Virus record (IMG/VR): IMGVR_UViG_2695420687_000013
Location: 1-7,496 of that record
DNA length: 7,496 bases
Direction: 5' to 3' (one strand)
Source of the DNA: a virus
Taxonomy: Duplodnaviria; Heunggongvirae; Uroviricota; Caudoviricetes
Shown: piece by piece, positions 5,314 through 6,235 of the stretch
Numbering within the stretch: position 1 is the stretch's first letter
Layout: every line of letters begins with the position of its first letter
Made by a program: the position numbers and the translations under genes
Notes under the pieces: generated by a model
The model's input: only the letters and a program-made list of their open reading frames with translations
Database searches by the model: none
Told to the model about the DNA's origin: nothing

Positions 5314-6009
5314 ATGAAAGAGATGATTTCTGTCGATCATGAAATATCCATGAGTAGTCTGGATTTTCTGAATAACATTATTAATCCAGCCCGGGCAGAA
5401 GCCGGAGAAGTCCCTCATGAACCGCGTAAGTTTCTTGCAAAAATTGAGGATGAGCTAGAGCTTGATGGAACCGGAAAAAAATTCCGGTTAAACAATAACC
5501 AAACAAGAACGGCATACTATGATCTGGATTTTGACCAGATGATGCTCGTTGGCATGAGGGAGTCAAAGGCCGTTCGTCGTTCTGTGCTGGCAAGACTCAA
5601 AGCGATGCATGGTATTCAGATCCCCCGGACTTTACCTGAGGCGTTGCGATTTGCGGCAAAACTGGCTGAACAGAAAGCAGTGCTGGAAAATCAACTGGCA
5701 ATAGCAGCGCCGAAGGCTGAATTTGTTGATAACTATGTTGAAGCATCTGGTCTGATGGGATTCCGGGAAGTTGCTAAGTTACTCGGTATCAAAGAAACCG
5801 ATTTCCGGCTGTTTTTGTTGGAGAACGGAATAATGTATCGCCTCGCTGGAAAAATGACGCCTTACTCGCATCACCTGGATGCGGGGCGGTTTAGCGTGAA
5901 AACGGGCGAGGCGGGCAATGGTCATGCTTTTACGCAGGTTAAATTCACCCCAAAAGGTGTTCAGTGGATTGCTGGTCTGCTTGCTGCATGGAGAGCTACC
6001 GCAGCATGA
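5314..6009 (+). CDS. ant: Phage antirepressor-like protein (KilAC/ANT domain family)
   Basis: 231-aa ORF with AAGGA 8 nt upstream of the ATG; C-terminal half (..GFREVAKLLGIKETDFRLFLLENGIMYR..GHAFTQVKFTPKGVQWIAGLL) resembles the KilA-C antirepressor fold. Position between R and Rz matches Stx/lambdoid prophages as recalled. Confidence 0.65.
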   Translation: MKEMISVDHEISMSSLDFLNNIINPARAEAGEVPHEPRKFLAKIEDELELDGTGKKFRLNNNQTRTAYYDLDFDQMMLVGMRESKAVRRSVLARLKAMHGIQIPRTLPEALRFAAKLAEQKAVLENQLAIAAPKAEFVDNYVEASGLMGFREVAKLLGIKETDFRLFLLENGIMYRLAGKMTPYSHHLDAGRFSVKTGEAGNGHAFTQVKFTPKGVQWIAGLLAAWRATAA

Positions 6010-6101
6010 AGATGATAAAAACGGACTGGAAATTTTTGCTGGTCTGGCTGATTCCGTTTTTATGGGTGGTTGCCCGGTTAATTACTGCTATTAAGGGGTA
6101 A
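6006..6101 (+). CDS. Hypothetical 31-aa single-TM micro-protein (MKMIKTDWKFLLVWLIPFLWVVARLITAIKG)
   Basis: Not in the supplied ORF track (too short). ATG overlaps the ant stop as ATGA (6006-6009); one hydrophobic helix flanked by K/R residues; stop TAA 6099-6101. No homology evidence. Confidence 0.3.
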   Translation: MKMIKTDWKFLLVWLIPFLWVVARLITAIKG

Positions 6102-6103
6102 AG

Positions 6104-6235
6104 ATGTCAGACAAACTCATAATGCTGGCGAAGGGCCTTTGTGTAATCGTCGGTATTTCATTTTCACTAATGCTGGTTGTTCTTTTTCTTTCCATAACCT
6201 GGATGGCGTTGACTTCGGCAGGGCTGGTGGGGTGA
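6104..6235 (+). CDS. Hypothetical 43-aa hydrophobic micro-protein (MSDKLIMLAKGLCVIVGISFSLMLVVLFLSITWMALTSAGLVG)
   Basis: Not in the supplied ORF track. ATG at 6104 follows the previous micro-ORF by 2 nt (AGGGG at 6094-6098 upstream); stop TGA 6233-6235 overlaps the Rz GTG at 6232 (GTGA). One to two predicted TM helices. No homology evidence. Confidence 0.3.
   Translation: MSDKLIMLAKGLCVIVGISFSLMLVVLFLSITWMALTSAGLVG

Follow-up and report, generated by a model that had tools for sequence, protein, structure and literature searches.

Two tandem micro-open reading frames (micro-ORFs), here called ORF1 and ORF2, lie between the antirepressor gene ant and the spanin gene Rz of a lambdoid Escherichia coli prophage, at positions 6006 to 6235 of a stretch of 7,496 nucleotides (nt) taken from IMG/VR record IMGVR_UViG_2695420687_000013 (positions 1 to 7,496; hereafter the window, meaning the stretch at its full length). 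It is very probable that ORF2 is a genuine gene, and probable that ORF1 is one as well. Frame-specific selection, the conservation of starts, stops and Shine-Dalgarno (SD) sequences, the tight spacing to Rz and a ribosome profiling (RIBOseq) record for a homologue together uphold the proposal of the first-pass annotation that the frames did not arise by chance and are genes coupled in translation. The two constitute the short form of an array that varies in make-up and has at most four micro-genes, and they belong to small phage membrane proteins that are already catalogued and uncharacterised. As for their function, we tentatively favour the view that, given that they are genes, they encode late-expressed, translationally chained inner-membrane micro-proteins that may modulate the membrane step of lysis.

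The layout of the pair is compact, and a check of the sequence found the positions, the lengths and both stop/start overlaps exactly as the first-pass annotation had described them. ORF1 (6006-6101, + strand; ATG 6006 to TAA 6101, MKMIKTDWKFLLVWLIPFLWVVARLITAIKG) encodes 31 amino acids (aa), and its start overlaps the ant stop codon, TGA 6007-6009, in the tetranucleotide ATGA. After a gap of 2 nt follows ORF2 (6104-6235, + strand; ATG 6104 to TGA 6235, MSDKLIMLAKGLCVIVGISFSLMLVVLFLSITWMALTSAGLVG), a micro-protein of 43 aa whose stop overlaps GTG 6232-6234, a codon in frame with Rz, as GTGA. The SD-like sequence of ORF1, GGAGAG (5990-5995, + strand), sits inside ant, 10 nt 5' of the ATG, and forms a moderate anti-SD duplex of -6.4 kcal/mol against a window background of -2.85 +/- 2.5; the diverged relative L169 conserves the ATGA overlap and has an SD of the same strength, likewise -6.4 kcal/mol. 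The SD of ORF2, AAGGGG (6093-6098, + strand), coincides with the last two sense codons of ORF1 and is strong, at -8.4 kcal/mol against the same background. Over 243 loci its mean is -8.2 kcal/mol, in four unrelated upstream contexts (after ORF1, after ORF3, which is described below, and at two junctions with a second antirepressor type, ant2).

Evidence that these frames are translated into selected peptides comes from about 240 related loci collected from IMG/VR, together with divergent relatives reached through protein searches. ORFs on the + strand cover 99% of 6006-6235, a tiling equalled in 0.5% of 5000 dinucleotide shuffles when any start codon is allowed and in 0.14% when only ATG is. 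The first-pass annotation had proposed a comparison of synonymous with nonsynonymous substitution, and that comparison points to purifying selection in the own frame of each ORF only. Against L169, codons 8-31 of ORF1 give a ratio of nonsynonymous to synonymous change (dN/dS, or omega) of 0.08 (P = 1.6e-4), with 1.45 and 1.86 in the off-frames, and ORF2 gives 0.35 (P = 0.018); off-frame values in the L169 comparison range from 0.97 to 1.86 overall. Minimal-step counts on a minimum spanning tree (MST) of 29 ORF2 alleles yield 31 synonymous and 42 nonsynonymous changes (omega 0.48, P = 0.002), a signal present in frame 0 only, where no stops occur, while the other two sense frames look neutral. 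The long form of ORF1, compared across E. coli, Citrobacter, Klebsiella and Enterobacter, has an omega of 0.16-0.35; with Citrobacter, pS is 0.82, at which synonymous sites are saturated, and pN is 0.26 (P = 2e-4). Such ratios are informative only through the MST step counts and the divergent loci, as close E. coli alleles alone give weak values of 0.54-0.68 and close ORF1 alleles are uninformative. Moreover, 41 of 42 distinct DNA contexts have an intact ORF2 (in one allele the stop is missing), and across these contexts the breaks in homology coincide with the start and stop codons of the gene, which is what a mosaic module would give. The replacements that ORF2 has accepted are conservative and stay hydrophobic, with a mean BLOSUM62 score of -0.14 versus -0.6 to -2.0 in the other frames.

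It is highly improbable, in our estimate, that the region holds no such genes, whether because the frames arose by chance in recently shared non-coding DNA or because a minus-strand ORF (6091-6312, 73 aa), which overlaps ORF2 and the start of Rz, is the real gene instead. Across ORF2, 236 of 237 loci keep the antisense frame open, and the dN/dS of that frame, 0.32, is about equal to the 0.35 of ORF2, whose overall omega is only moderate. This likeness arises because the wobble positions of the two frames coincide, so that dN/dS is unable to separate ORF2 from the antisense ORF, and the conservation of start and length and the conservativeness of replacements were used instead. The antisense ORF varies in start and length (9-139 aa), offers no start that could be used in 59 loci and accepts less conservative replacements (mean BLOSUM62 -0.63), and no promoter is predicted on the minus strand nearby. 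Further, ORF1 is covered by no antisense ORF, a tiling as dense as the observed one is rare in shuffled sequence, and the RIBOseq record described next lies on the sense strand.

This record, XECs191 (MMGWLMISDKLITLVKSLCVLVGISFLVMLVAIFFSTAWRVLTLSGLVG), belongs to the RIBOseq catalogue of E. coli O157:H7 Sakai (Huecker et al. 2017, PMC5597208), where, in LB medium, it has a transcriptome value of 30.0 and a translatome value of 12.6 reads per kilobase per million mapped reads (RPKM), a ribosome coverage value (RCV) of 0.43 and a coverage of 0.55. The catalogue classes it as 'real' and predicts an inner-membrane location and a single transmembrane (TM) helix, with its function unassigned (PMC5597208). 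XECs191 shares with ORF2 the ISDKLI...GISF core, the ...SGLVG C-terminus and the place after an ant-type gene and before Rz; it differs in being a 49-aa allele with a 6-residue N-terminal extension and another C-terminal half. The record corroborates the translation of ORF2 but does not decide it.

The first-pass annotation had called the two ORFs unannotated, which does not hold. ORF2 is RefSeq protein WP_001280923.1, annotated in a RefSeq genome (L001) that is identical to the window over the 351-base-pair (bp) query, and at least 1000 contigs contain its sequence. GenBank entries identical to ORF1 (BAI35649.1 and others) bear the names 'membrane protein' or 'prophage protein' and come from 389 contigs; phage PhiR5_1 annotates both. 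At the family level, ORF2 matches the hidden Markov model (HMM) of phrog_4906 (E = 6.6e-24, residues 1-43 on profile positions 7-49 of 49) and ORF1 that of phrog_6632 (E = 1.1e-4, residues 7-30 on positions 20-43 of 45). Membership of phrog_4906, phrog_6632 and the companion families of ORF3 and ORF4 is by direct sequence, and all are listed as 'unknown function'. A literature search on the accession and on small ORFs of lysis cassettes in Shiga toxin (Stx) phages found no functional study.

By these alignments, ORF1 of the window belongs to the 45-aa phrog_6632 family but is truncated at its N-terminus. In E. coli loci without ant, its frame runs further upstream to a TTG or GTG, preceded at 5 nt by GGGAGG (-10.2 kcal/mol), and the resulting 45-aa form matches phrog_6632 far better (E = 1.4e-13, profile positions 1-43). 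Differences within the upstream extension are mostly synonymous, and the start codon alternates between TTG and GTG. Homologues in other genera are also 45 aa long, and the most conserved part of the family is an N-terminal motif, IDFSKLIRELR. The full-length architecture of about 45 aa, with this motif on the cytoplasmic side followed by a C-terminal TM segment, is thus not that of the window ORF1, in which seven unrelated residues, MKMIKTD, have taken the place of the N-terminal domain at the ant junction. Despite the truncation, L169 keeps a 31-aa ORF1 with the ATGA overlap, under constraint. Among genes of the ORF1 family, the first ~36 nt (GTGATTGATTTTAGCAAACTGATACGGGAGTTGCGA) are identical in Enterobacter, Citrobacter and Klebsiella (L256, L257 and L254, each at 3501-3638), and E. 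coli L004 differs from them at a few bases, while the part coding for the TM segment diverges; recent exchange or a constraint at the nucleotide level could account for this identity.

The suggestion that the peptides form single or double TM helices stands for the single helix and fails for the double. ORF2 is modelled by AlphaFold2 as one continuous helix over residues 2-38, at a predicted local distance difference test (pLDDT) score of 88.7, with no hairpin. Both of its lysines lie N-terminal of a strongly hydrophobic core and its C-terminal flank carries no charge, from which an inner-membrane topology of N-in/C-out is predicted. ORF1 is marginally hydrophobic, its single TM segment having a summed apparent dG of about 0, similar to the second transmembrane domain (TMD2) of the holin. 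The C-terminal half of ORF2 is loosely constrained, and one lineage of it (L166 3001-3132, MSGKLTKLAEILWIIACISFSATLAAFLLSMAWMALSSSGLVG) differs from the window by 21 nonsynonymous and 5 synonymous changes (omega 1.56) and retains length and hydrophobicity; rapid or diversifying evolution may be at work there.

Comparison across alleles also bears on the downstream partner. Rz probably starts genuinely at GTG 6232, the most upstream candidate, as had been supposed, which would give (M)SINRMLSAF..., and the start placed by the annotation pipeline PGAP at ATG 6247, in the genome identical over the 351-bp query, is probably wrong. In two loci, ATT stands where the window has ATG 6247, and upstream they read ATG-GTG-AGC-ATA-AAC-CGA, encoding MVSINR-ILSAF, so those loci must start upstream. 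The other Rz type begins MNR-VLCVV, which aligns to ATA-AAC-CGA of the window; where the MNR type has its ancestral ATG, the window has ATA. A start at GTG 6232 puts an arginine before the transmembrane domain (TMD) of Rz, and lambda Rz likewise has an arginine before its TMD. In every context, the micro-ORF stop either overlaps the Rz start or lies 1 nt or 7 nt from it: GTGA in the window, 7 nt from ORF2 to type-B Rz, and 1 nt from ORF4 or from a gene of the IRWW type to Rz. The C-terminal type of ORF2 co-segregates with the N-terminal type of Rz, which we attribute to physical linkage and not to co-evolution.

The pair is best understood as part of a modular array. At least five architectures occur between the lysozyme gene (lys) and Rz: lys-ORF3(60 aa)-ORF2-Rz in about 72 loci, lys-ant2-ORF2-Rz in about 55, lys-ORF1-ORF2-ORF3-ORF4-Rz in about 50, the window type lys-ant-ORF1-ORF2-Rz in about 20 and, rarely, forms with DNA methyltransferase genes inserted after ORF2, so that presence is variable between conserved flanks, as for morons. 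Within the methyltransferase class, L022 and L048 have genes of 255 and 314 aa in the interval from ORF2 to Rz. Many E. coli prophages have ORF3 (38-60 aa, ...ALAFAIKWVAVGIAVSPMLYGLAKLVIALKS) and ORF4 (28 aa, MSAELIRAMAFAIRIVAIAVLVWAIRWW) in this interval, for example at L004 3214-3425 and L002 3289-3500. The two are paralogous (z = 6.4), and ORF3 has an omega of 0.31; both share an ...IRWW ending with ORF1-family members of other genera and, judged by sequence, may be distantly related to ORF1 (z = 4.2). The companion PHROG families to which ORF3 and ORF4 belong are phrog_1115, phrog_4493 and phrog_3246.

The distributions of the two families differ. ORF2 is essentially confined to E. coli prophages, Rz is nearly always the next gene after it, and all of the ~240 loci lie within lysis cassettes; an HMM search of 1.84 billion representatives for far homologues returned 28 matches, all of the same narrow family, and a scan of one genome per species returned a single contig of 328 bp labelled Xanthomonas, probably a contamination. 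The query stretch was found in 1094 of 5426 complete E. coli genomes (about one in five), at up to five places per genome. The ORF1 family is wider than ORF2 and has two recurring homes. One is the junction between endolysin and spanin genes, in four unrelated cassette types: E. coli S21/R21, H-19B, Salmonella SPN3UB, and an Enterobacter cassette with a GH19 endolysin and an unrelated spanin pair; in H-19B and SPN3UB, the stop of the ORF1-family gene lies 1 nt before the Rz ATG. The other, among tail and baseplate genes, is taken up below.

From the lysozyme gene to Rz, the window shows no promoter- or terminator-like site and no Rfam element; both strands are free of promoter-like sites around 6006-6235, and no Rfam match was found in the whole window at E <= 1. 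Loci without ant have a strong terminator-like hairpin 3' of the lysozyme gene with no promoter after it; in L004 (2878-2910), this hairpin has 15 pairs and a T-tract and lies within the late operon, after the lysozyme gene and ahead of the micro-ORFs. A terminator-like hairpin that no promoter follows suggests that the array would depend on antiterminated read-through from the late promoter. ORF1 and ORF2 would then lie on the Q-dependent late transcript and be co-expressed late, as close-packed cistrons through which translation would pass from ant to ORF1 (ATGA), over 2 nt to ORF2 (with its SD within ORF1) and on to Rz (GTGA). The peptides would accumulate in the inner membrane late, and there may tune holin triggering, endolysin release or spanin function.

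Homology assigns the pair no function. ORF1 and ORF2 have no match in Pfam, NCBIfam, PADLOC or Rfam (Pfam, PADLOC and Rfam at E <= 1), the ORF2 profile compared with the holin profile PF04971 has an hhalign probability of 0.8%, and neither ORF resembles the TM segments of the cassette proteins above shuffled controls. A likeness of ORF3 to the holin TMD2, seen by eye and with a shuffle z of 4.3, was dropped at an hhalign probability of 2.3% over 15 columns. ORF2 has a single helix and ORF1 one marginal segment, not the two TMDs of a class II holin, pinholin or antiholin. An i-spanin has a periplasmic coiled-coil domain after its N-terminal TMD, whereas at most about 15 residues follow the TM core of ORF2, and there is no PF03245 match; nor do the ORFs resemble type I toxins of the Hok, Ldr or Ibs kind, having no promoter-like site of their own and no Rfam match. 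Antiholins and pinholin S21 offer a plausible analogy in lysis timing, as small inner-membrane proteins of the same cassette and time, but they have no sequence relationship to the pair, ORF2 has one helix where they have two TMDs, and neither ORF is a dual-start product of the holin gene. Releasin gp25 of phage Mu, a protein of 99 aa with N-out/C-in topology, a 73-aa acidic cytoplasmic domain and a DUF2730 assignment, is likewise a small bitopic membrane protein that is located near a SAR (signal-anchor-release) endolysin and aids lysis without being a holin (PMC9239132). The window ORFs differ from it in their 31 and 43 aa, a predicted N-in topology, hardly any soluble domain and the lack of a DUF2730 match. 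Phage morons such as bor and lom of lambda, which are accessory genes between conserved late genes, resemble the pair in variable presence, in the hairpin-flanked copies of the ORF1 family in tail modules and in a site shared with ant and methyltransferase genes; they differ in that no own promoter was detected for the pair in the window or L004 and that the window ORFs are chained translationally to their neighbours and are probably not autonomous.

In favour of a role in lysis, every ORF2 found sits in a lysis cassette, and ORF1-family genes turn up repeatedly where endolysin and spanin genes meet. Several observations weigh against this role or against the genes themselves. The ORF1 family has its second home in stand-alone, terminator-flanked genes among tail and baseplate genes, in Citrobacter, Klebsiella grimontii and Salmonella phage SEN34; in Citrobacter and Klebsiella, terminator-like hairpins flank these genes and promoter-like matches are weak. 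In a phiP27-like phage whose cassette has two canonical holins, a soluble GH108 endolysin and no Rz, the ant-ORF1-ORF2 block is still under selection. The cassette essD-rrrD-rzpD of prophage DLP12 in K-12, which is of the same type and has 4-nt overlaps, does without the micro-genes, which are thus accessory and not core lysis genes. The junction of R and Rz is a general insertion hot spot, receiving two ant types and DNA methyltransferases, so that position alone is weak evidence for a role in lysis. No similarity was found to any characterised lysis regulator, the window ORF1 is without the most conserved motif of its family, and the window's copy may be without its late promoter (see the junction at 1758-1778 below). 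The RIBOseq signal of XECs191 is weak, stems from an uninduced culture and belongs to a homologue, and multi-copy prophages complicate read mapping. Finally, damaged alleles occur: ORF2 is frameshifted or internally deleted in P0060, P0063 and P0076, and a premature stop leaves an ORF1 of 24 aa (MISQLPNWKFLLVWSIPFLWVVSQ; L037-L041, protein P0157), annotated as ECO103_1198 in E. coli O103:H2 strain 12009.

Some of these observations are what one would expect of moron cargo with a membrane role outside lysis, such as superinfection exclusion or the modulation of a host membrane protein or of defence, which is the main rival explanation, less likely than not and yet not far behind the modulation of lysis in likelihood. 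It would account for ORF1-family genes standing alone between terminator-like hairpins in tail and baseplate modules, for micro-ORFs whose presence and order vary between otherwise near-identical cassettes, for the sharing of the site with ant genes and methyltransferases, for the movement of ant-ORF1-ORF2 as a block into a phiP27-like phage, and for the fast evolution of ORF2 in the L166 lineage, as is often seen in interaction or arms-race genes. Exclusion factors, however, normally require lysogenic or early expression, whereas no promoter active in the prophage state is predicted in the window or L004 and a terminator lies upstream in loci without ant; ORF2 was never found outside a lysis cassette, and the exclusion and defence families of PADLOC gave no match at E <= 1. 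A purely translational relay, in which the ORFs load ribosomes for Rz/Rz1 after an insert or a terminator hairpin and the peptides have no function, would suit the close junctions with the following cistron (in every context a stop/start overlap or a spacer of 1-11 nt), the strong SD (GGGAGG) on the first micro-ORF after the terminator hairpin and the loose constraint on the C-terminal half of ORF2. It is very unlikely, in view of the purifying selection on the amino-acid sequence (omega 0.08-0.35), the conservative, hydrophobic replacements in ORF2 and the persistence of the ORF1 family where no downstream lysis gene requires coupling.

Membrane-depolarising toxins, of the type I or the single-gene-lysis kind, that trigger a pinholin and SAR endolysin sensitive to the proton motive force are scarcely likely either. 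The peptides are small, hydrophobic and single-helical, they stand in a cassette of the S21/R21 type, and holins and endolysins of that type respond to membrane depolarisation; yet there is no antisense RNA or Rfam toxin-antitoxin element and no promoter of their own, E. coli genomes carry multiple copies, and the genes are retained alongside a soluble endolysin and canonical holins. Within the preferred role in modulating lysis, a more specific proposal, which we regard as unlikely, is that the micro-genes between endolysin and Rz (the phrog_6632 family, ORF2, ORF3 and ORF4) are an unrecognised class of TMD-only lysis regulators. Under that proposal, translational coupling would hold them at a fixed ratio with Rz, and they would act on the TMD of the i-spanin or on the pinholin. 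Were it true, such regulators would set the time of envelope disruption and, in Stx phages, the release of Shiga toxin and virions as well.

The surroundings of the pair are those of a lambdoid, Stx-type prophage, whose late lysis region makes up the right two-thirds of the window by Pfam. A gene for a SASA esterase (1863-3608, Pfam) precedes that for a class II S21-type holin (3901-4107, + strand; PF04971, E = 1.2e-32), and between the two, at 3757-3845 on the + strand, are two terminator-like hairpins, one of them with 11 pairs and a T-tract. Then come YdfR/DUF1327 (4112-4456, Pfam), a phage lysozyme of the R21 type with a weakly hydrophobic, SAR-like N-terminus (4507-5040, + strand; PF00959) and ant (5314-6009, + strand), a KilAC-domain antirepressor of 231 aa (PF03374, E = 2.7e-28). 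The latter is a moron between the lysozyme gene and the micro-ORFs, missing from most related loci, and its dN/dS against L169 is 0.03. Beyond the pair lie Rz (i-spanin; 6232-6705, + strand; PF03245, E = 4.7e-50), with Rz1 (o-spanin lipoprotein; 6458-6643, + strand; PF06085, E = 1.7e-21) embedded in it in the +1 frame, and a TonB-C-like gene (7023-7364, Pfam). A layout of holin, SAR endolysin and Rz is usual in Stx phages, and R21-like SAR endolysins have been described (PMC8136144).

Two further observations concern the wider locus. Scattered N bases lie at 1758-1778, exactly where an EamA-type transporter gene meets the 5'-truncated SASA esterase gene; a 1-kb query across this junction found no place covering at least 80% of it in the 5426 complete E. 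coli genomes, and its best matches among those listed start at window position 1778. The junction is likely to be an assembly joint or a rare deletion and, if real, would leave this prophage copy without Q, pR' and everything upstream. In phiP27-like phages, the endolysin region is followed by a small ORF for a lipoprotein (MPRTA.KWALVAILVPF.LVGC..., phrog_7528) that is conserved, at 2496-2684 in L251 (phiP27) and at 3167-3322 in L169; the phiP27 RefSeq feature L32 (locus 2453-2608) is in another frame and may be mis-annotated.

About one-fifth of complete E. coli genomes have the stretch in a prophage, and many of these prophages are Shiga-toxin phages. In the model phage H-19B, as in phages of Salmonella and Enterobacter, related micro-genes adjoin the spanin gene, yet they are missing from many annotations. 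Annotations would gain from calling ORF1, from recognising its native form of 45 aa and from a start of Rz that is probably GTG 6232. Should the peptides modulate lysis, they would affect burst size and the time at which toxin is released; if they have another role, such as exclusion or the targeting of a host membrane protein, they would represent a compact and widespread moron family.

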